Assembly: GCA_041671305.1 (NCBI GenBank)
Contig: JBAZBX010000001.1
Coordinates: forward strand, 40,821 to 104,820
Reading direction: 5' to 3'
Source: Patescibacteria group bacterium
GTDB lineage: Bacteria > Patescibacteriota > Patescibacteriia > 2-01-FULL-39-33
DNA: 64,000 nt
In this document: in pieces, positions 4,846-38,397 of the stretch
How positions within the stretch are numbered: position 1 is the first letter of the stretch
Layout of the letters: each line of letters starts with the position of its first letter
Program-made: the position numbers and the translations under genes
The notes under the pieces: generated by a model
The model's input: the letters and a program-made list of their open reading frames with translations, nothing else
Database searches by the model: none
Told to the model about the DNA's origin: nothing

Positions 4846-5082
4846 TCATAAGTTATCCTCCCTTATCTCCTGTTCGGCCAATTCTTTCGTCGGAAAGACT
4901 TTGGCCTGGTTAATGCTCTCCGTCCACTTCCTTCTTTCGGACGGATCAGCGTACACGGTACGCCACTGGGCATCAAACAATCCTCCCCTTTGAATCACCC
5001 ATTCACCGCGGACTCGTTCCACATGAACAGGTTTCAAAGATGCGCCCATCGTTTTGGGCCTAGTCAACAACTCAATCATGAT
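4846..5082 (-). CDS. Small hypothetical protein encoded in a GC-rich island
   Basis: GC-rich ORF. The longest ORF runs to 5268, but its N-terminus overlaps the ABC-F terminator. GAAGGAGAG sits 6 nt upstream of the ATG (MIELL...), which favours a start at 5082. Confidence 0.4.
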   Translation of the reverse strand: MMIELLTRPKTMGASLKPVHVERVRGEWVIQRGGLFDAQWRTVYADPSERRKWTESINQAKVFPTKELAEQEIREDNL

Positions 5083-5220
5083 CTTCTCTCCTTCCATTTC
5101 TCCTTGTTGTTGCGCTCTCCCTCGGGTTTGAGCACCTAAATAAACAACGAATTTCACTCGGCCTATATCATAACACATCGCTAAATATCTGTCAATACCA
5201 TTTTTGACCAAATTAGCCAA

Positions 5221-5246
5221 AAACAACAAAACTCCCAAAAGGGAGC
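5221..5246 (-). terminator. Rho-independent terminator of the ABC-F gene
   Basis: GCTCCC-TTTT-GGGAGT hairpin followed by a T-run on the minus strand just after the stop at 5271. Confidence 0.6.
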
Positions 5247-5270
5247 TTTTATTAATTATTTTAATCAAAA

Positions 5271-6725
5271 TTAAACTTTATTCAGATCCAAATATTCGTC
5301 AATTCTAATCTGTTTGACAAAATCAGGCATGTGACTGACCAGAATCATCGCGCCCTCAAAATCATTAATTGCCTTAGCAATAACCGGAATATGCCGGAAA
5401 TTAATATGATTAGTCGGCTCATCCAGCACCAATAATCCCGGCCGCATCAGAACCAATCTGGCAAAGGACAAGAGTCCCTTTTGCCCCTCAGACAAACTCC
5501 CCACAGTATGATCCATTAACTCTCCGGTAATAAGTAATCCTGCCGCCGTAGATCTCATTTCCTGCTCCGTAATATCATCATCCAGGATAGCGCTCTTGAG
5601 AGAATTAAAAACAGTCTCATCAAAATTGAGCTGAGAGAAATCCTGACTATAATATCCAATTCTGACGCCTTCAGTAATAGTAGCGCCTTCAGCCTTGCCA
5701 GCCACAAGAAAACGCAAAAACGTGCTTTTGCCAATACCGTTGGGACCGGTTACTAGCAGATGCGTCTTCTTGCGAAGCACCACGTCCACATCTTTGAGCA
5801 ATGGCAAATGATTATAAAAAGACAAAACTGATTTGATCGTCACAACCTCGGTCTTAATATTTTGTTCAGGAATGGTAAAATTTCTAATGGTTTTGTCTTC
5901 TCGTCTGACATCCACAATATTGTCTTCTTGCTCTTCAATTTCATCTCTGAGTTTCTTGGCTAATTTTCTCATCTTACCACCTTTATTGGCAAAAAAATTA
6001 ACTTTTTCTTTGCGATCTCTGATTAATTTTTCCGCGCGGGCATTTTCCATCTGTTCTCTCTCAATCCTTTTGGAAATTTCTTCCACCACTGAGTAATAAT
6101 CGCCCACATAAGCCTCAATCTTGTGAGTAAAGACGTCTAAGTATATGACTCCTTCCGTAAAACAATTAAGAAAATCAGCGTCATGGGAAATTACTATAAC
6201 CGTCTTCTCGTACATCACCAGAAAAGTAATCAAGTGATCAATGCCGTCAGAATCAAGATTATTGGTCGGCTCATCAAGCAACAAAATATCCGGATCCTGA
6301 ATCAAAGCATAAGCCAAAAGTAACCTGGCCTGCTGTCCACCGCTCATATCCCCCACTTTCCTCTCCAAAGGCATATTCAAATTAACCGCTTCCAAAACCT
6401 TGCTAATCCTGCTTTTGAGATTGCCCGGAACCATAGTAAACGCCTTGGCAAAATATTTTTCCACGGTCAACTCCAAATCATCTCTATCCATAGTCTGTCT
6501 AGCCGTACCAATGGTGGCGTCGTTGGTGATAGAAATTCTCCCCTTTTGCGGTTTAATTTTTCCCTGGATGAGATTAAAAATCGTGCTTTTACCGGCACCA
6601 TTTTGGCCCATCAAAGTAATTTTCGCGCCCTTGCGCACACTGAAACTAGCCTCTTCCAAAAGAGGTTTTTTGTATGCGTATTCAAATGAAACTTCATCAA
6701 AACGAAGTATTACTTCTTCGGCCAT
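5271..6725 (-). CDS. ABC-F family ATPase (tandem ABC domains, no TMD; translation-associated)
   Basis: Two Walker A motifs (GQNGAGKST, GPNGIGKST) and two ABC signatures (LSGGQQARL, LSEGQKGLL). Confidence 0.85.
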   Translation of the reverse strand: MAEEVILRFDEVSFEYAYKKPLLEEASFSVRKGAKITLMGQNGAGKSTIFNLIQGKIKPQKGRISITNDATIGTARQTMDRDDLELTVEKYFAKAFTMVPGNLKSRISKVLEAVNLNMPLERKVGDMSGGQQARLLLAYALIQDPDILLLDEPTNNLDSDGIDHLITFLVMYEKTVIVISHDADFLNCFTEGVIYLDVFTHKIEAYVGDYYSVVEEISKRIEREQMENARAEKLIRDRKEKVNFFANKGGKMRKLAKKLRDEIEEQEDNIVDVRREDKTIRNFTIPEQNIKTEVVTIKSVLSFYNHLPLLKDVDVVLRKKTHLLVTGPNGIGKSTFLRFLVAGKAEGATITEGVRIGYYSQDFSQLNFDETVFNSLKSAILDDDITEQEMRSTAAGLLITGELMDHTVGSLSEGQKGLLSFARLVLMRPGLLVLDEPTNHINFRHIPVIAKAINDFEGAMILVSHMPDFVKQIRIDEYLDLNKV

Positions 6726-6879
6726 AATTTATATTATAAAAACCCAAGGATCTTCTTAGGTTTGTCTCTGCATTACTGCAGTATAATAGCATATTTTATA
6801 TAATCTTGCAACCACAAATCCCTGAAGCCCTAGAATACGCTTAAAATTTAATTTCAAAAATAGCGTAAAAAAAAGAGGG

Positions 6880-7320
6880 CCCGACGCGATGATCTTGGAG
6901 GGTGATCGCGTCGGGCGGGAGTTGGGACTCCGAGGGGGTTAGGTACACGACAAATTGACAATAGCGAGGGGGTGCTGGAAGAGGGTGTTCCTCTCGCCAT
7001 TACACAACTCGTCGTGCAAAAAAACTTTTTTGGAGGAAGGTGGACCGAAAAACAGCAATCACTCCCTTTTCATGCTAGTCGTCACATCACGCGCATTGTA
7101 CACAAAAAATGACTAGCATGTCACCGAATCGGTGATGTGGCGGGTGTTGTACACCACAGGATGATTCAACTAAATTCCGTCCACCTTCCTCACTACATAT
7201 ATGGCCGCCCTTATCATCAATCAACCGTTCCAACCGTTCGTGTTTCACAGACATAAGGGTCGAGCCAAGCCTCTTGGGATGAGGCATTTGGGGCTAAAGA
7301 AAGAACGACTCTAAAACAAT
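6880..7320. ncRNA. GC-rich, highly structured, apparently non-coding segment (candidate structured RNA of unknown class)
   Basis: About 55% GC in an AT-rich genome with almost no ORF. Hairpin 6883-6918. Long-range 13-bp helix GGAGGAAGGTGGAC (7031-7044) / GTCCACCTTCCTC (7178-7190). Crossing helices 7071-7079/7110-7118 and 7082-7089/7131-7138 form a pseudoknot. Confidence 0.3.
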
Positions 7321-7774
7321 TACATTATATTAAAATTAGATATAAAAGTCAAGATTTATACAACAAAATCTTTTTATTTCATTTTAAAAGCTAATTTAGA
7401 AGGTTAATTAGGCCAGCTATATCAAATTAACGATTAGTGTGCTAAGATTAAACTCTAATTAAGAACCTACGGGGAAATGGTCGTGACCACGTATTAAGTC
7501 CAGAAATGGATACTACTAGATACCAAATACCATGACAGAAGATACAACAGAAGAAACAACAGAGGAAACTCCTGAAGTTGCTACAGAAGAAAAAACAACA
7601 GAGGAAGCCGCTTCATAGACAATGAAAACGAAGCAAAAAAAGAAAAAATCCCCACTAAACTAGTGAGGCTTTTTTCTTTTGGGTAGAGAACTGGCTGAGT
7701 GAAACAAAATTTTCAAATTTTTGAGTGAGCCAAATTTGGGCTGGACTTCGGCGCTAAGCGCCGGAAATTCCGAA

Positions 7775-7892
7775 TGGCTGGGTGTTTATGAACAAATCCG
7801 AACCGAATTTAAACAAAAATCATGATCGGGCGGGCGGAATCCCCCCCAAACCCCTCCTTCCGCCCGACCTAAACATCTGGACGGCTGAGGCG
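7775..7892. repeat. 118-bp inverted repeat, left copy (IR-L)
   Basis: 100% identical to the reverse complement of 9326..9443. Contains an internal TCGGGCGG...CCGCCCGA hairpin. Confidence 0.9.
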
Positions 7893-7904
7893 AAATAGCA
7901 ATTT

Positions 7905-8951
7905 TCAATTTTTCTTTGGCGGCGAATTTTTTTCTCCTTCTTTAACTATTTCCCTTACTTCATTGTAACTTATCTGCCTTGGCCATAATAGATTGCCGTG
8001 AGCATCATAAATTGGCAGAAGAAAATCAACCCGGTCTCCATAAATCTTTCTCATTAATGTAGCTATTTCATTTGCTTTATTTTGTTTGCTTTCATCATCA
8101 TCAACTTCTTTATACCTATGTATTTTTCTTAAAACTTCTTGTGGGACATATGGTTGTTTTTTATATAAATTATCCATTTCCTCCTCTGTCTGTTCTGCCA
8201 TGGCTCTTATTACAATACCCTTAAACCGGTCTGGAGCAATTCGAAAAGACAAAGCGTAGCCCTCAGAATAGTCAGGAATCCTTCTGTCTCCTTCTTCAAA
8301 ATATTCTTCTCTTTCTGATCCTGGTCTAGCATGGGCTCCGAAAGTATTACTTTTATACTGTAATTTTTCTCTTTTGCCAAGGTCATAATCCAATGCATAA
8401 TTGGCAATTTCAGTATTTTCCTTAAAATCTGCTGTATCAAAAATTATTCCCAAGGAGGTTTGGCTTGTTCCAATGGGTCTAAACCAATGGGCGTCTTCGA
8501 TTTTTCTTAAATCCCGACCAACAATATTGAAAAAAACAACGGCCCCCATTTTTTTTCTAACAGCGCTAACCCAATCTTGTTCAGGACTGTTAGGATTCAA
8601 TTTTCCTAATAAACCCTTTCGAAGTATACCGCCTAATTTAATGGTGGAATTATCATCTTCAAGTATTCTAACAGAATGAAATCCTGTCCCCGGTTTATTT
8701 ATATCTTGTATTTTTTCCATTATTCTCTCAACCACTTCAGGTAGTAGTTCGGGAGGAATAGGGATGTCGGAATTATCAATATTTTGATCTGCATTTTCCA
8801 CGTCCAAAATATCGCTTTCGACTTGATAATCATCAGGAGAAAAATCCTCACCCTTCTCAGGATATTTTTCTTTCAATTTTTCTTGTAGCCTTTGGGCTTC
8901 TTTTAGAGCGTCATCGTTGTTTAATCGACCGCTTTCAAATCTTTTTTCCAT
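7905..8951 (-). CDS. Hypothetical 348-aa protein (cargo of the IR-flanked cassette)
   Basis: Long ORF 5 nt downstream of the XRE HTH gene on the same strand. No recognizable domain. Confidence 0.55.
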   Translation of the reverse strand: MEKRFESGRLNNDDALKEAQRLQEKLKEKYPEKGEDFSPDDYQVESDILDVENADQNIDNSDIPIPPELLPEVVERIMEKIQDINKPGTGFHSVRILEDDNSTIKLGGILRKGLLGKLNPNSPEQDWVSAVRKKMGAVVFFNIVGRDLRKIEDAHWFRPIGTSQTSLGIIFDTADFKENTEIANYALDYDLGKREKLQYKSNTFGAHARPGSEREEYFEEGDRRIPDYSEGYALSFRIAPDRFKGIVIRAMAEQTEEEMDNLYKKQPYVPQEVLRKIHRYKEVDDDESKQNKANEIATLMRKIYGDRVDFLLPIYDAHGNLLWPRQISYNEVREIVKEGEKNSPPKKN

Positions 8952-9272: not shown

Positions 9273-9302
9273 CAAAATAAAGTTCGAGCCGATTTTTTTA
9301 AT
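9273..9302. repeat. 30-bp inverted duplicate (B') of the recombinase 3' coding segment 10901..10930
   Basis: CAAAATAAAGTTCGAGCCGATTTTTTTAAT equals the reverse complement of 10901-10930. Confidence 0.85.
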
Positions 9303-9325
9303 CTGGTTCTTTGGCGGTTTTATTC

Positions 9326-9443
9326 CGCCTCAGCCGTCCAGATGTTTAGGTCGGGCGGAAGGAGGGGTTTGGGGGGGATTCCGCCCGCCCGATCATGATT
9401 TTTGTTTAAATTCGGTTCGGATTTGTTCATAAACACCCAGCCA
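9326..9443. repeat. 118-bp inverted repeat, right copy (IR-R)
   Basis: Reverse complement is identical to 7775..7892. The outer end CACCCAGCCA resembles the tRNA-Gln 3' end CCCGCAGCCA. Confidence 0.9.
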
Positions 9444-9512
9444 GTTTCGTTTTTCATTTTTTAAAACCGAATCCCAACCGTTTTTTGGCTTAAATTCAAA
9501 TTTTTTGCCTTG
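9441..9512. repeat. 72-bp inverted duplicate (A') of the tRNA-Gln 3' end plus downstream flank (10931..11002)
   Basis: The reverse complement of 10931-10999 is identical to 9444-9512, and the CCA is also shared. Confidence 0.85.
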
Positions 9513-9574: not shown

Positions 9575-11062
9575 ATGAAATACTTTCTTTATGCCCGCAA
9601 GTCGACAGACGAAGAGGATCGTCAAGTTCTTTCAATTGAAGCCCAGCTCGCGGAGTTGAAGGAGTTAGCCGCCAAAGAAAAATTGGAAATTGCGGACTCG
9701 CTCTGCGAGTCCAAAACCGCCAAAGAACCAGGCCGAAAAATTTTCGGCGGAATGCTCGCTCGGATTGAAAAAGGTGAGGCCGACGGAATTTTAGCGTGGC
9801 ACCCAGATAGATTGGCCAGAAATAGCGTTGATGGTGGAAAAATTATCTACATGGTGGATATCGGCCAGATCAAAACGCTAAAATTCCCGACTTTTTGGTT
9901 TGAGAATACTCCGCAAGGGAAATTCATGCTCAATATCGCTTTCGGCCAAAGCAAATACTATGTTGATAATTTAAGCGAAAATGTTAAACGTGGTTTCAGG
10001 CAAAAGTTAAGGCGCGGCGAATATCCCAATAAAGCGCCCATCGGCTATCTTAACGACCGAACAGCTAAAACCGTGCTCATTGATCCTCTGCGCGCCAAGC
10101 TCGTGATAAAGATGTTTAAGATGTACAACACGGGAGAATTTTCGCTTAAATTTCTTAAAGATAAGTTTTGCGATATTGGCCTGACCAGCAAGCGCGGCAA
10201 AATCCTGACTGTCGGCATGATTTCTAACATATTGAATAATCCCTTTTATTGCGGAGTATTCAAGTTTAATGGCGAAATCTACCAAGGCAAGTACGAGCCA
10301 ATTATTTCCAAGAAGCTTTTTGATGAAGTTCAGGCGGTAATGAAAAACCGAGGACGGCCGCTCGGGCAAGACAAACACGATTATGCTTTTACTGGACTTA
10401 TGAAATGCAAGTGCGGCGCCTGCATTACCGCCGAACGGCAAAAAGGCCATATCTATTATCGCTGTACGAAAAAGCTTGGAGCCTGCGACGAAAAGTATAT
10501 CCGCGAAGAAAAACTGCTGGAGCAATTCCATGGCCTTTTTCAAAAAGTTTCTTTGCCAGATGACTGGATTGACAAGATGCTCGCTAAACTCGATGAGGAA
10601 CAAAAAAGCGACATGAAGTCATCGGTAGGTCTGATTGACGAGGTAAAAACGCAAATAGGAGCCATAGAGAGCAAGCTAGATAAGTTGCTCGATGATCGAT
10701 TAGAAGGATTACTCGATAAGGACGACTATTTGCGGAAGAAGGAACAACTCATCAATCAGAAAATTGCTTTTGAGGAGAAAATCCAGTCAATCAGGCAAAC
10801 GGGAAATAATTGGCTCGAACCGATGCGGGAATTCCTTTCCGCCAATAAACAAACCAAAAAAGTCGCCAATAGCGGCGACATTCTGGAAATCCGAGCATTC
10901 ATTAAAAAAATCGGCTCGAACTTTATTTTGCAAGGCAAAAAATTTGAATTTAAGCCAAAAAACGGTTGGGATTCGGTTTTAAAAAATGAAAAACGAAACT
11001 GGCTGCGGGACCTGGAGTCGAACCAAGATAACAGCTTTCAGAGAGCTGCGTCCTACCATTAG
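9575..11062 (+). CDS. Large serine recombinase (resolvase/invertase catalytic domain, recombinase domain and zinc-ribbon)
   Basis: YARKST catalytic-serine motif near the N-terminus; CKCGACITAERQKGHIYYRC zinc ribbon; 495 aa. The last ~20 codons are antisense to tRNA-Gln. Confidence 0.9.
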   Translation: MKYFLYARKSTDEEDRQVLSIEAQLAELKELAAKEKLEIADSLCESKTAKEPGRKIFGGMLARIEKGEADGILAWHPDRLARNSVDGGKIIYMVDIGQIKTLKFPTFWFENTPQGKFMLNIAFGQSKYYVDNLSENVKRGFRQKLRRGEYPNKAPIGYLNDRTAKTVLIDPLRAKLVIKMFKMYNTGEFSLKFLKDKFCDIGLTSKRGKILTVGMISNILNNPFYCGVFKFNGEIYQGKYEPIISKKLFDEVQAVMKNRGRPLGQDKHDYAFTGLMKCKCGACITAERQKGHIYYRCTKKLGACDEKYIREEKLLEQFHGLFQKVSLPDDWIDKMLAKLDEEQKSDMKSSVGLIDEVKTQIGAIESKLDKLLDDRLEGLLDKDDYLRKKEQLINQKIAFEEKIQSIRQTGNNWLEPMREFLSANKQTKKVANSGDILEIRAFIKKIGSNFILQGKKFEFKPKNGWDSVLKNEKRNWLRDLESNQDNSFQRAASYH

Positions 11063-11073
11063 ACGATCCCGCA
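11000..11073 (-). tRNA. tRNA-Gln (anticodon CUG)
   Basis: Manual fold gives U1-A72 acceptor pair, U8, D-stem GTCT/GGAC, anticodon loop CTCTGAA with U33 and A37, T-loop TTCGACT, discriminator G and an encoded CCA. Confidence 0.8.
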
Positions 11074-13507: not shown

Positions 13508-13680
13508 ATAAATTAAACTTTTTTAAAAAATGGGTTGAATATAAGAGAAATTATCCAAAATTAGATAAAATATAGGATTAATACTTCCTATCTATTGACA
13601 AAAGTACAAATATATACTATATTATAGGGTCACAATGAGTGACGGAAGCACATCACAACCAAAAAGGAGCATTGACTGTC

Positions 13681-14085
13681 ATGAGAATAATCATGAATAC
13701 CAACTTCGGGGACAGAGAATATGGCCCGGAACAAGACAAGGAGGCCTCTTTCCGACTAGTCCTCGCGACGATGACCTGGATATGGACACGATTCCTGCCG
13801 TTGGCCATGGAATTGGAATACATGAAAGAAGCGAAGGTGCATTCCTTGACATTCTCAATTCCCAGCTTTGAACCTTCGGGCATTCTTCTGACAATTGTTT
13901 TTACGAAGCATGGTAAAAAGCGGCATAGACACAAAGCTTTCAAATTGGATATTGACCAAAATGGCTTGGCGAAACTGGAGGTTCCCAAAAATCCGACACC
14001 GCCCACAACTGCCATATGGTCAGATCCGATGACACCCGAACAATTGATTGAGTCGATCAAGGCAACAATGGAGATTACGGTATGA
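13681..14085 (+). CDS. Hypothetical protein (GC-rich island, first of two coupled genes)
   Basis: AAGGAG lies 8 nt upstream of ATG 13681 (the ORF-track start at 13639 is probably too early). GC is about 50%. The stop overlaps the next start as ATGA. Confidence 0.45.
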   Translation: MRIIMNTNFGDREYGPEQDKEASFRLVLATMTWIWTRFLPLAMELEYMKEAKVHSLTFSIPSFEPSGILLTIVFTKHGKKRHRHKAFKLDIDQNGLAKLEVPKNPTPPTTAIWSDPMTPEQLIESIKATMEITV

Positions 14086-14704: not shown

Positions 14705-17248
14705 TCAGAATTTCGGCCTAGCCGGCATACCCATTTGCCCAATCCTGGATCTCTCCACAATTTCCCTGACTACAATTTTGCGATCACGTCCAAACTTGAG
14801 ACGCGACAATTCTTTGAGTGGCGCTACGATGCCTTTATCGGCCTGGAAATAATCCTTGAAATTATAAATCTTCATATTGAATGGATCGGAAGCGGCATTA
14901 TCAATTAAGAGACGCAGATAAACTGAGAATTTCTCCGTATTCATCACATCATATTCACTCACTTGCGGACCAAGCTGTTTGGCGATAGTCTCGGCATCAT
15001 CCACGCCGATTCTATATGCCGCCACAGTACCCACATTACCAAAAATAGCATCCCTTACCCTGGTGTCATTGTTCTGCACCAGTTGCGCTATGAATTGATG
15101 ACCCATGATCAAATTAAGTTTGTATTTTCTCGCTTCGGACAAAATAATAGAAATACTGTCGGTAATGAAATTTTGAAACTCATCAATGTAGAGATAGAAA
15201 TCATTTCTTTGATCCTCCGGCAAATCAGCGCGTCCCAAAGCCGCCATCTGCAACTTGGATACCGCAATTAAACCAAGTAAGTTGCTATTGGTCTCACCAA
15301 TTTTTCCTTTGCATAAATTCATGAGCAATATTTTGCCTTCATCCATGACCTGTCTGAAATTAATTCCTGATCTGGATTGGCCGATGATATTTCTCATCAA
15401 TTCATTTTCCACAAAACGTCCTGTTTTGGAAATAACATAGGAAAGCATATCGGATCCCGTAGAGCCTTTTTGCGAAGCCGGATATTCCCTTTCCCAGAAA
15501 TCCTTTACCAAAATATCGGTGACGTGCTCTAATTTTTGCTTGCGATAAGTTTCATCAGTAAAAATACGCGCCAATTCCACCAAAGTTCCAGGATCATCCT
15601 GATCGGCCATAAGTGCCAGAAGCGCGTTCCTCATATAATGCTCAAACATAGGTCCTGCCATGGCCGGATCCGGCAATAATTTGTAGAAAATATTAATCAT
15701 TTCCTGAGCCGCCATATCCATTTCATACGGCGTGTGCGCCTCTAGCATATTGAGCCCCATAGGTCTTTCCATGTCCGAAGGATCAAAAATTATCACATCA
15801 TCAAGACGATTTTTCGGGATATAAGGCAAAATGTCTTCCACAAAACTGCCATGCGGATCCACGATACAAACGCCCTTGCCGGCCGCAATATCCTGCAAAG
15901 CCATATGCGACATGAAATAACTTTTACCGGTACCGGTCATACCGACGATATACATATGTCTTCTCCTATCTTCATCCTTGATACGAACGATGTGTTTCAT
16001 GCCCCTGAAATCGTTTTCACCCAGGACAATTCCTGTTGCAGGCATATTTACCGGAGGCGCCAATCTTTTGGCTTGAAGCCACTTGATGCGAGGCACTTCC
16101 GTGTTGGGATATGGCAAGTGCCACAAGGAAGCCATTTCTTCAGAATTCAAAACGCAATAATTACTCTCATCAAAATTACGATAAATAAAATCTTGGATTA
16201 ATTTATTGCCTGAACCCTTGAGTACCGCCTTGAACGAGTTGGCATATTGATAACTGGAATATTGCGAAAAAGCGTTGGCTATGTGCCTCAGCACATCCTT
16301 GGCGAGATTTTCCACTGGCGCAAAAGTAATTATCCTAATATTTACATCCAATCCTGATTTAGCGGCTTTTTCTTCAATAAATTTAACCATCTGCTCTTCC
16401 ATGGGCGATAATTTATAAAGCTCTGGCGGTTTGCTGTCATCTTTTTTGGTAGAAGTCGGCAACCAATCTGACGGCTTGCCCAAAGTCTTGGAGAGTGCCG
16501 TAGAAGATGCCGAGGACATGGCGTCCTTCAATTTCTTACCCTGTTGCATTTCCGAAGCCACTTTGACACCTCTCTTTCTCCAATTAGGAGAAGCCGAACG
16601 CATGACAAATTGTATGGCCACCGTATGTCCCGGAGGCAATTTGGACAAAGTGCTCAGTATTCCCAGAATCGGATCCGTCTCCATTTGTTTGTAAGTCAAA
16701 ATAGGAAACATGGATTGCTTGGCTAACTTCAAATATCCGCCAGCCACATATCCTTGCTGATTAAAAATATTATAATCCTCCACTTCCTCAATCTGACAAT
16801 GCGGGAACTGTGACAGAATCTGCTGTTTGATATAATTTTCCAGATAAACAGGCACCGCCATATAGAAAGTGATAAGCCCATCAGAGCCAACCACCATCTC
16901 AAAAGACCAGCAGTCATAACGCCCAAAAAGCCAAGTCTTGAATCCTTTGTGAGGCATCAAACCGCCCAAACTGGCATAAAAGTTTTCCACACCGGCAAGC
17001 AATTCTTTGATATTTTTCACCTTATTCTCGTCATTTTTATCCAAATCAAATTCAGGAACAGTCAACATAAATATCTTTTTCTCAAAAATTGCCGGGTACA
17101 GCTTGTGTGAGGACAAAATTTTACGCAAAATAAAAACCAGGATAACCGCCGCCACGATAACGAAGATTATGATAAATAACCAAAAGATAATCTGATTCAG
17201 CAATGCTGATGAGATAATTTGTTCGTCAATAGGAATATTTAATTCCAT
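14705..17248 (-). CDS. Type IV coupling-protein-like ATPase (TraD/TrwB/VirD4 family, TraG-D_C-like) with an N-terminal membrane anchor
   Basis: N-terminal TM helix; Walker A GMTGTGKS as in TrwB; Walker B region YLYIDEFQNF followed by ARKYKLNLIMGHQ; 847 aa. Confidence 0.6.
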   Translation of the reverse strand: MELNIPIDEQIISSALLNQIIFWLFIIIFVIVAAVILVFILRKILSSHKLYPAIFEKKIFMLTVPEFDLDKNDENKVKNIKELLAGVENFYASLGGLMPHKGFKTWLFGRYDCWSFEMVVGSDGLITFYMAVPVYLENYIKQQILSQFPHCQIEEVEDYNIFNQQGYVAGGYLKLAKQSMFPILTYKQMETDPILGILSTLSKLPPGHTVAIQFVMRSASPNWRKRGVKVASEMQQGKKLKDAMSSASSTALSKTLGKPSDWLPTSTKKDDSKPPELYKLSPMEEQMVKFIEEKAAKSGLDVNIRIITFAPVENLAKDVLRHIANAFSQYSSYQYANSFKAVLKGSGNKLIQDFIYRNFDESNYCVLNSEEMASLWHLPYPNTEVPRIKWLQAKRLAPPVNMPATGIVLGENDFRGMKHIVRIKDEDRRRHMYIVGMTGTGKSYFMSHMALQDIAAGKGVCIVDPHGSFVEDILPYIPKNRLDDVIIFDPSDMERPMGLNMLEAHTPYEMDMAAQEMINIFYKLLPDPAMAGPMFEHYMRNALLALMADQDDPGTLVELARIFTDETYRKQKLEHVTDILVKDFWEREYPASQKGSTGSDMLSYVISKTGRFVENELMRNIIGQSRSGINFRQVMDEGKILLMNLCKGKIGETNSNLLGLIAVSKLQMAALGRADLPEDQRNDFYLYIDEFQNFITDSISIILSEARKYKLNLIMGHQFIAQLVQNNDTRVRDAIFGNVGTVAAYRIGVDDAETIAKQLGPQVSEYDVMNTEKFSVYLRLLIDNAASDPFNMKIYNFKDYFQADKGIVAPLKELSRLKFGRDRKIVVREIVERSRIGQMGMPARPKF

Positions 17249-22311: not shown

Positions 22312-22692
22312 CTACCTCACTGCCAGCTCGTGAGCCGGCCGTTGTGCTTTGTGATACATCCCAGTCATCACCTTCTCTCCGTCCGTCAAGCTGCACACAG
22401 CACACAGCACATACTTCGGGAAAATTTGACTTCCCCTGAATTGTCCACACGCATCACAAAGTTCCATTGCAGCCCGAAGATTGGCCTGAGCATGCTCCTT
22501 TGCTCCCTCCGAGCCAAATTCAACTATCCACTGAGCTGCCCGACGCAACCGAGAGTTATTGATACAGGGATCTTCAACGCCGTCCCTGTCCGGACTATTC
22601 AATAGCTCCTCCGCCTTGTCCAAACAACCAAGAACTCCGCGCGCGTCTTGAATGCGCTTCTGTTTCTCATCACAACAAACCAACTCCGACAT
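22312..22692 (-). CDS. Cysteine-rich hypothetical protein (GC-rich island)
   Basis: GGAAGGAG lies 8 nt upstream of the ATG; 126 aa with about 9 Cys including CDACG and CAVC pairs; GC about 55%. Confidence 0.5.
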   Translation of the reverse strand: MSELVCCDEKQKRIQDARGVLGCLDKAEELLNSPDRDGVEDPCINNSRLRRAAQWIVEFGSEGAKEHAQANLRAAMELCDACGQFRGSQIFPKYVLCAVCSLTDGEKVMTGMYHKAQRPAHELAVR

Positions 22693-38213: not shown

Positions 38214-38397
38214 ATTTGTAATAATTAAAATTACGAATTAATAATTGAAAAAATAAAAACTGTGGTTTTCCACAGGGTAAAATAGCTAAATCTAGCTAAT
38301 TCCTCGGTAGGTCTTATGTCTTTAATGACGCCTACTGTCTGTGGAAAATTAAGTTATGCATAAATTATAACAAAATATAAAGAAAAGTCAACATTTA

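Follow-up and report, generated by a model that had tools for sequence, protein, structure and literature searches.

Among the systems closest to the one described here are RNAIII, RsaE/RoxS and the other Rsa RNAs of Staphylococcus aureus. RNAIII is 514 nt long and carries a C-rich motif in its terminator loop (hairpin 14), the Rsa RNAs, described by Geissmann and colleagues in 2009 (PMC2790875), are reportedly multi-hairpin regulators with C-rich loop motifs, and the C-rich loops of RNAIII and the Rsa RNAs pair with Shine-Dalgarno sequences. Here we describe a segment of about 450 bp (6868-7318) within a 64,000-nt stretch of DNA, called the window in the following, from a metagenome-assembled genome (MAG) of the Patescibacteria (candidate phyla radiation) close to Candidatus Buchananbacteria, and we read it, with about an even chance of being right, as a stand-alone accessory gene for a structured small RNA that is an orphan. 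Such a gene would resemble those of RNAIII, RsaE/RoxS and other Rsa RNAs in standing alone with its own promoter and intrinsic terminator (here predicted), and RNAIII in particular in its size (~450 nt against 514 nt) and its several stable hairpins; as in RNAIII hairpin 14, a short C-rich motif repeated in its loops recurs in the terminator loop. It differs from them in that the segment has no sequence or covariance-model similarity to these families, the motif is ACCC(CC)UC instead of UCCC, Shine-Dalgarno targets are hardly used in this genome (3 of 44 genes) and the host is a Patescibacteria MAG, with the RNA known from sequence alone.

The original prediction had placed the segment near the large, ornate GOLLD and ROOL classes, with which it has in common that it is large, rich in GC, structured and non-coding and lies near mobile DNA within an AT-rich genome. 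This reading was not supported, as no covariance-model match was obtained at any threshold (Rfam, up to E <= 10) and no family of relatives is known for the segment. The segment is also smaller (~450 nt against ~580 nt for ROOL and ~800 nt for GOLLD), its helices are simple, long and perfect and not short and irregular, and inspection of the loops of the predicted fold found none of the GNRA-type tetraloops that ornate RNAs commonly carry. Another comparison is offered by the Breaker-laboratory pipeline for GC-rich intergenic regions, which reportedly draws structured RNA candidates from long GC-rich intergenic regions of AT-rich genomes (PMC11109978, PMC6429828, PMC8723152). Here too an unusually GC-rich, long intergenic region of a low-GC genome belongs to no known family, but the candidates of that pipeline were accepted only with covarying homologues and no homologue was retrieved here. 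Finally, the nested perfect inverted repeats in variable DNA beside a recombinase element recall miniature inverted-repeat elements (MITEs) and palindromic repeat DNA, from which the segment is distinguished by being single-copy in the sequence examined, by the lack of a target duplication, by its strand-biased non-Watson-Crick oppositions and by the promoter and terminator that bracket it.

Patescibacteria have tiny genomes and are mostly uncultured, and their regulatory RNAs are, to our knowledge, almost undescribed. If confirmed, the gene would be a rare case of accessory RNA-based regulation in Patescibacteria, located on exchangeable DNA, and a starting point for a family; at present it is one sequence in one genome, a defined candidate with strand, ends and domains specified.

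Ends, strand and fold of the predicted RNA

The predicted RNA is bounded on the minus strand by a promoter and a terminator (Table 1), which bracket the structured block exactly. From the sigma-70-type promoter, transcription is predicted to start near 7317. Eight sites as good as this one occur across both strands of the window (128 kb), and six of the other seven lie directly upstream of a gene or of the ribosomal protein L10 leader in the correct orientation (the seventh is located inside a listed 140-aa open reading frame, ORF), so that sites of the TTGACT-17-TATAAT class are predictive in this genome. At the opposite end the terminator stem (-23 kcal/mol, z -5.4) is followed by CCUC and then by U8 (6867-6874), and a U-run 3' of the stem is found on the minus strand only. 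The terminator is absent from the listing of the terminator scan, probably because its 14-nt loop exceeds the 8-nt limit of that scan. A weaker promoter-like site (GTGACA-18-TACAAT, 10 of 12 positions) was seen at 7124-7095 (-) within the H3 domain and could yield a shorter 3' transcript.

The minus strand is also favoured by the two largest domains when they are folded singly. The minimum free energy (MFE) of the H3 domain is -72.0 kcal/mol on the minus strand (z -7.1, 9 G-U pairs) and -61.9 kcal/mol on the plus strand (z -5.9), and that of H4 is -34.3 (z -7.3) and -25.6 kcal/mol (z -2.5), respectively, which makes both together ~19 kcal/mol more stable on the minus strand. When the minus-strand fold was inspected by eye, H3 and H4 contained seven helix-internal G-U pairs and not a single internal A-C mismatch, a pattern that selection on an RNA, and not on duplex DNA, would yield. 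We infer both transcription and strand from these features, the most likely product being a ~450-nt transcript of the minus strand from ~7317 to ~6868. The original prediction had named no strand; since the minus strand is favoured, this RNA would head towards the gene for an ABC-F ATPase and away from the recombinase cassette.

The structure of the segment is strong and non-random. Four perfect inverted repeats are present (12, 13, 10 and 8 bp), and perfect complementary 8-mers number 15 against 1.6 +/- 1.6 in dinucleotide shuffles (none of 1000 shuffles reached 15), perfect 10-mers 8 against 0.1; when the whole region is folded, the plus strand has a z score of -5.98 and the minus strand one of -6.73. 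The terminal hairpin of the original prediction is indeed a perfect 12-bp one (GCCCGACGCGAT, 6879-6890, with ATCGCGTCGGGC, 6905-6916). The proposed 13-bp long-range helix is likewise present and perfect, but 1-2 nt away from the positions first given for it (GAGGAAGGTGGAC, 7033-7045, with GTCCACCTTCCTC, 7179-7191), and it lengthens to 17 bp if one mismatch is allowed (7033-7049 / 7175-7191). Inside it, an inner helix of 10 bp (CATGCTAGTC, 7071-7080, with GACTAGCATG, 7111-7120) is interleaved with one of 8 bp (CACATCAC, 7083-7090, with GTGATGTG, 7132-7139; 11 bp with one mismatch). Because of this interleaving the H-type pseudoknot that had been claimed is geometrically possible, but the 8-bp pairing competes with a local 6-bp hairpin TCACCG/CGGTGA (7121-7135) that is preferred in the MFE fold, and the pseudoknot is better described as a possible alternative pairing within 7083-7139.

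In the predicted fold the helices of H1, H3, H4, H5 and the terminator have pair probabilities of 0.9-0.99, and H2 is the weakest domain (z -2.3). The multi-branch junction of H3 bears three hairpins (7137-7157, 7121-7135 and 7071-7120), and the apical region of H4, 18 nt in length, holds two copies of a repeated motif. This motif, ACCC(CC)UC, occurs in four copies across the RNA where 0.21 are expected (reached in 1 of 2000 shuffles), and its core CCCUC occurs five times against an expectation of 0.64 (0 of 2000 shuffles). Every copy of the motif is located within the 3' 110 nt at predicted unpaired positions, and the unpaired positions of the fold are poor in G (11%).

These features suggest how such an RNA might work. 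Transcription would start near 7317 from the consensus sigma-70-type promoter (7352-7324, minus strand) and would stop at the stem 6916-6879 with its U8 (6874-6867), short of the ABC-F gene, which is served by a promoter of its own. Once made, the RNA would fold into six elements, namely H1, H2, the multi-branch H3, the 24-bp H4, H5 and the terminator hairpin, and the four ACCC(CC)UC sites could form its working surface of repeated single-stranded sites. By analogy with the C-rich, multi-loop regulators of Gram-positive bacteria such as RNAIII and the Rsa RNAs we infer, weakly, that this surface might act by pairing with G-rich (GAGGG) stretches of other RNAs or by titrating an RNA-binding protein. 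Anti-Shine-Dalgarno targeting as in RNAIII was rejected, as a Shine-Dalgarno-like sequence precedes only 3 of the 44 genes in the window; the regions 5' of the 44 ORF starts are almost pure A/T, and for the most part translation seems to be initiated here without Shine-Dalgarno sequences. A duplex scan of the window showed no enrichment of start sites, and its top predicted trans target, in rplL, was rejected as it looks like a chance extreme score. The recombinase element has G-rich hairpin loops (7826-7865 and 9341-9380) that rank among the best predicted partners in the window, but these are simply the most G-rich sequences nearby.

Table 1. Coordinates of the predicted RNA, its elements and the adjoining features in the window (all predicted from sequence; MFE, minimum free energy; z, folding z score)
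Feature	Position	Strand	Description
Predicted ~450-nt non-coding transcript	6867..7317	-	bounds from promoter and terminator; MFE -169.6 kcal/mol, z -6.7
Sigma-70-type promoter TTGACT-17 nt-TATAAT	7324..7352	-	consensus match, 11/12 consensus positions
H1, 5-bp hairpin GCCUC/GAGGC, loop AUCCCAA	7269..7285	-	MFE fold, pair probability 0.96
H2, imperfect long hairpin with direct repeat GAACGGUUG x2	7202..7267	-	MFE fold, pair probabilities 0.55-0.88
H3 domain, perfect 13-bp closing helix 7033-7045 / 7179-7191	7032..7193	-	MFE fold
Alternative pairing CACAUCAC/GUGAUGUG, 7083-7090 with 7132-7139	7083..7139	-	perfect 8-bp complement
H4, 24-bp hairpin (14 + 10 bp, 5 G-U pairs)	6944..7018	-	pair probability 0.98
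Motif copy 1, ACCCUC	6981..6986	-	H4 apical loop
Motif copy 2, ACCCCCUC	6966..6973	-	H4 apical region, loop and first stem pairs
Linker, 12 nt, single-stranded	6932-6943	-	MFE fold, between H4 and H5
Motif copy 3, ACCCCCUC	6932..6939	-	single-stranded H4-H5 linker
H5, 5-bp hairpin GGAGU/ACUCC, loop CCCA	6918..6931	-	pair probability 0.96
Intrinsic terminator, CCCGACGCGAT hairpin	6867..6916	-	12-bp G+C-rich stem 6879-6890 / 6905-6916, 14-nt loop CACCCUCCAAGAUC
Motif copy 4, ACCCUC	6898..6903	-	terminator loop
ABC-F own promoter TTGCAA-17-TATTAT, upstream TG	6783..6811	-	downstream of the RNA terminator; conserved in relative L132, which lacks the RNA
ABC-F ATPase gene	5271-6725	-	downstream of the RNA, same strand
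Strain-specific segment, 965 bp	6813..7777		homology to relatives L132/L133 ends at 6812 and restarts at 7778

Coding potential and known RNA families

The segment is richer in GC than the window, with 49.4% for 6868-7318 (49.7% for 6880-7320) against 38.7%, and a local peak of 57% is reached in 6846-7062; the contrast of 55% to 35% stated at first was thus overstated. As had been predicted, it is non-coding with hardly any ORF. The ORFs in it amount to 66, 53, 48 and 46 aa and none of them is credible. The longest, located at 7287-7087 (-), has no match in Pfam or PHROG and no homologue among 5.8 billion proteins in a word-indexed search, and its codon usage is not gene-like (log-likelihood 0.03 per codon; 0.15-0.5 for genes of the window). 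No stop-free stretch in any frame gave a Pfam match, no record of the 48- and 53-aa ORFs was found, and a 71-aa frame matched solely low-complexity repeat proteins among 1.84 billion representatives. Of a degraded protein-coding gene, which would have spoken against the original prediction, no protein signal was seen in any frame. In these tests the segment showed no protein-coding capacity.

In order to compare the segment with described RNAs, the whole window was searched against Rfam 15 with cmscan at gathering thresholds and the region 6600-7800 with permissive filters at E <= 10. In neither search did the segment match any family, including GOLLD, ROOL, RNase P RNA, tmRNA, signal recognition particle (SRP) RNA, 6S RNA, tracrRNA and ribosomal RNA (rRNA), and ARAGORN found nothing in the window except a tRNA-Gln. 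The Infernal scan that had been proposed therefore leaves the segment without a family, and the statement that it is not an RNase P RNA, tmRNA or SRP RNA is borne out by Rfam and ARAGORN alike.

Several resemblances to known RNAs were followed and rejected. As to RNase P RNA, the word GAGGAAGG pairs with its own complement in the perfect 13-bp helix and not in a P4-type pairing. Two 16S-like words are present, GAGGAAGGUGG and a GAUCACC(C)UCC loop, and a fragment or mimic of 16S rRNA was considered; the local alignment score against the 3' domain of E. coli 16S rRNA (an approximate query sequence) was 22, against 18.5 +/- 2.2 in shuffles of which 31 of 300 reached 22, and small-subunit rRNA gave no match at E <= 10. 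A few words are shared with Cas9 tracrRNAs, but the window has no CRISPR array, the segment has no Rfam match and no Cas9 was found among the eight ORFs scanned, the largest included. A sponge of the CsrB/RsmZ type, which would need the plus strand, was rejected because GGA is not enriched (8 by hand count against ~8.5 expected from base composition) and because promoter and terminator are on the other strand. The similarity of 6910-6940 to a repeat of the recombinase element comes down to a shared 9-mer and G-richness and is estimated to be about what chance would give.

Weighing the RNA gene against other explanations

Within this single sequence the promoter, the terminator and the helices, which differ between the strands, speak for a real RNA gene. 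By its position the putative gene is accessory: the 965-bp segment containing it is present here, absent from the nearest relative and located beside a serine-recombinase junction. The closest relatives have 93-94% amino-acid identity in ABC-F, and two loci of this group, L132 and L133 (93%), were compared with the window. Since the ABC-F gene keeps its own promoter, the RNA would be a separate transcription unit, ending 142 nt upstream of the ABC-F start codon.

A number of observations weigh against such a gene. At the level of the RNA itself, the U-tract begins 4 nt past the terminator stem, the plus strand gives slightly better folds of the terminator and of H2, and the full-length folds have almost the same number of G-U pairs on both strands (15 against 14), so that a strand call by total G-U counts failed and the comparison per domain alone was informative. 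The perfect helices are long (10-13 bp), and helices of this kind fit young or selfish palindromic DNA better than old structured RNAs. As to function, Shine-Dalgarno sites are hardly used by the genome and so cannot be the proposed base-pairing targets, and the pairing partners from the duplex scan were no better than any G-rich sequence would give. In L132 and L133 the site is occupied by unrelated genes, namely that of a short-chain dehydrogenase and two small ORFs.

The search for relatives also counts against the gene. Of 41 loci taken around ABC-F homologues, 29 belong to Patescibacteria (69-93% identity), and in these 29 no relative of the RNA came up with blastn, with nhmmer or with a covariance model built for the H3 domain. 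They do not share gene neighbours with the window either, and the loci of homologues of a neighbouring 348-aa protein have other contexts without the RNA. Phage and plasmid collections gave no match, six viral-contig patterns gave chance hits or none, and one metagenome pattern scan, in which loops were fixed and stems free and whose collection excludes the source itself, gave 65 hits that were all attributed to chance by similarity and architecture. As no homologue was retrieved, covariation support is absent. Conservation outside this genome, the lack of which was to count against the original prediction, was thus not found in these narrow pattern and synteny searches, but since the large collections were searched by exact patterns or synteny only, conservation is unproven rather than disproven.

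Several of these points could be explained by an element acting at the level of DNA, in which the nested palindromes would represent a miniature inverted-repeat element or a decayed insertion, or a site of protein binding or recombination. They would form part of the variable DNA beside the serine-recombinase element, and promoter and terminator would be incidental. The long and perfect helices (12, 13, 10 and 8 bp), the good folding on both strands and the equal full-length G-U counts would all be expected, the 17-bp arms at 7033-7049 and 7175-7191 flank 125 bp in the manner of terminal inverted repeats, and this strain-specific segment borders on a junction for which three populations show three different flanks. 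We nevertheless consider this explanation unlikely, as a reading of the flanks by eye showed no target-site duplication beside the 17-bp arms, the 965-bp segment ends without terminal repeats, and neither the window nor ~1 Mb of fetched loci contain a second copy. Moreover, H3 and H4 have their helix-internal G-T oppositions on one strand throughout, a bias not to be expected from selection on DNA, and the block is bracketed exactly by a near-consensus promoter and a terminator. The same two signals, together with the intact and perfect helices, are what decay would be expected to erode if the segment were a foreign remnant, i.e. a decaying gene or RNA gene brought by a mobile element and without a present role. 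The GC content of 49% within a window of 38.7%, the absence of the segment from the closest relative and the lack of homologues anywhere searched would fit such a remnant, but it shows protein similarity in no frame and its loop motif is significantly enriched, and we regard a remnant as quite doubtful.

Two further explanations leave the segment transcribed but give the RNA another role, and both seem very improbable to us. It could be a long cis-acting 5' leader or attenuator of ABC-F, with expression controlled by terminator read-through: the orientation is the same, the distance to the start codon is 142 nt, the segment ends in a terminator and ABC-F resistance genes are often under attenuation control. 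This is disfavoured because the ABC-F gene is preceded by a promoter of its own (6811-6783) and by a short 5' hairpin and U-run, which are both conserved in L132, where the RNA is absent, and in none of the 29 related ABC-F loci was anything similar found upstream. Alternatively the 66-aa ORF at 7287-7087, which begins 30 nt past the predicted transcription start, could be translated from the transcript, in which case this would be an mRNA or have a dual function; the missing Shine-Dalgarno sequence is not evidence against its translation because the genome hardly uses such sequences. What speaks against it is the lack of any homologue or of a Pfam or PHROG family, the low codon log-likelihood, and the fact that the ORF crosses the most stable helices.

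The accessory gene for a structured RNA is thereby the reading we favour. In a more far-reaching version of it, the RNA would be the first one seen of a class of structured RNAs of ~450 nt not described so far, which would be the cargo of small recombinase-associated cassettes in Patescibacteria. Its four ACCC(CC)UC loop sites would then form a multivalent decoy or guide, acting on G-rich nucleic acid or on an RNA-binding protein, and the G-rich loops at 7826-7865 and 9341-9380 in the recombinase element would be candidate targets. We think that this version is improbable, and the RNA cannot yet be called a new class because it lies on strain-specific DNA and no relative was found.

The strain-specific segment and the recombinase island

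The nearest ABC-F homologues come from Buchananbacteria MAGs. Directly before the ABC-F start codon a short hairpin with a U-run (ACCUAAG...CUUGGGU UUUUAU, 6735-6760, minus strand) was seen, which corresponds to L132 3588-3612 with a conserved stem and a different loop, and it may be an attenuator or translation-control element of ABC-F. Both L132 and L133 align to the window from ABC-F to 6812 and again over 7778-7929 with 95% identity, and what they carry in between is AT-rich and without similar structure. In a third population (L060) another, different sequence is joined at 7778. The end of the element at 7775-7778 (reverse strand ...AAACACCCAG|) is thus joined to three unrelated sequences, in the window, in L132/L133 (L132 2076/2077) and in L060 (1378/1379). 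The conserved 152-nt piece at the junction is 95% identical although the ABC-F genes of those genomes are only 81% identical at the DNA level, and the junction at 7778 looks like a recombination hot spot or mobile end.

Also within the 965-bp segment, and divergent from the RNA gene, is an ORF at 7535-7621 (+) for 28 aa (MTEDTTEETTEETPEVATEEKTTEEAAS), highly acidic, rich in Thr and Glu and made of 12-nt tandem repeats. It was called as a gene by JGI in another sample and is followed by a bidirectional terminator-like hairpin at 7638-7680.

Beyond the segment the island encodes a 348-aa protein, a helix-turn-helix (HTH) protein and a large serine recombinase (9575-11062), the gene of which overlaps with its 3' end the tRNA-Gln at 11000-11073. 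That the segment adjoins a recombinase-bearing mobile region agrees with the original prediction, whereas the adjacency to a tRNA that it had also claimed does not, since the nearest one, this tRNA-Gln, is 3.7 kb off. The 348-aa protein (7905-8951, minus strand) is paired with the HTH regulator, belongs to no Pfam or PHROG family, and only ~10 homologues of it were found in a set of 5.8 billion proteins. Three other samples contain it with 100% identity, on short contigs breaking at the repeats. The population of the window also occurs in JGI sample 3300014208, ENA ERZ27249449 and SRR18595301. Nested inverted duplications surround the recombinase, namely 7775-7897 / 9321-9443 (123 nt, 99%), 9438-9512 / 10931-11005 (75 nt, 100%), 9273-9302 / 10901-10930 (30 nt, 100%) and 7898-7926 / 9665-9693 (29 nt, 93%). 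The parts that recur in inverted form come from the DNA upstream of the recombinase gene, from the 5' part of its coding sequence and from the flank close to the tRNA, which suggests past or ongoing recombinase-mediated inversion or integration.

Elsewhere in the window, the 140-aa ORF at 4846-5268 contains a near-consensus promoter (TTGACA-17-TATGAT, 5195-5167, minus strand) and a GC-rich stretch (4857-5074); a related contig has a 126-aa version, and 140 aa is probably too long for the real gene. GC-rich stretches (52-55%) were also seen at 13639-14085 (+) and 22312-22692 (-), where the covering ORFs (148 and 126 aa) belong to no Pfam family; codon usage is weak in the 126-aa one (0.065 per codon), and both may be orphan or foreign genes. 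The L10 leader is located at 38245-38362 (-) (57.6 bits) with a near-consensus promoter just upstream, and an 847-aa protein (14705-17248, minus strand) resembles TraG/TrwB type IV coupling proteins.

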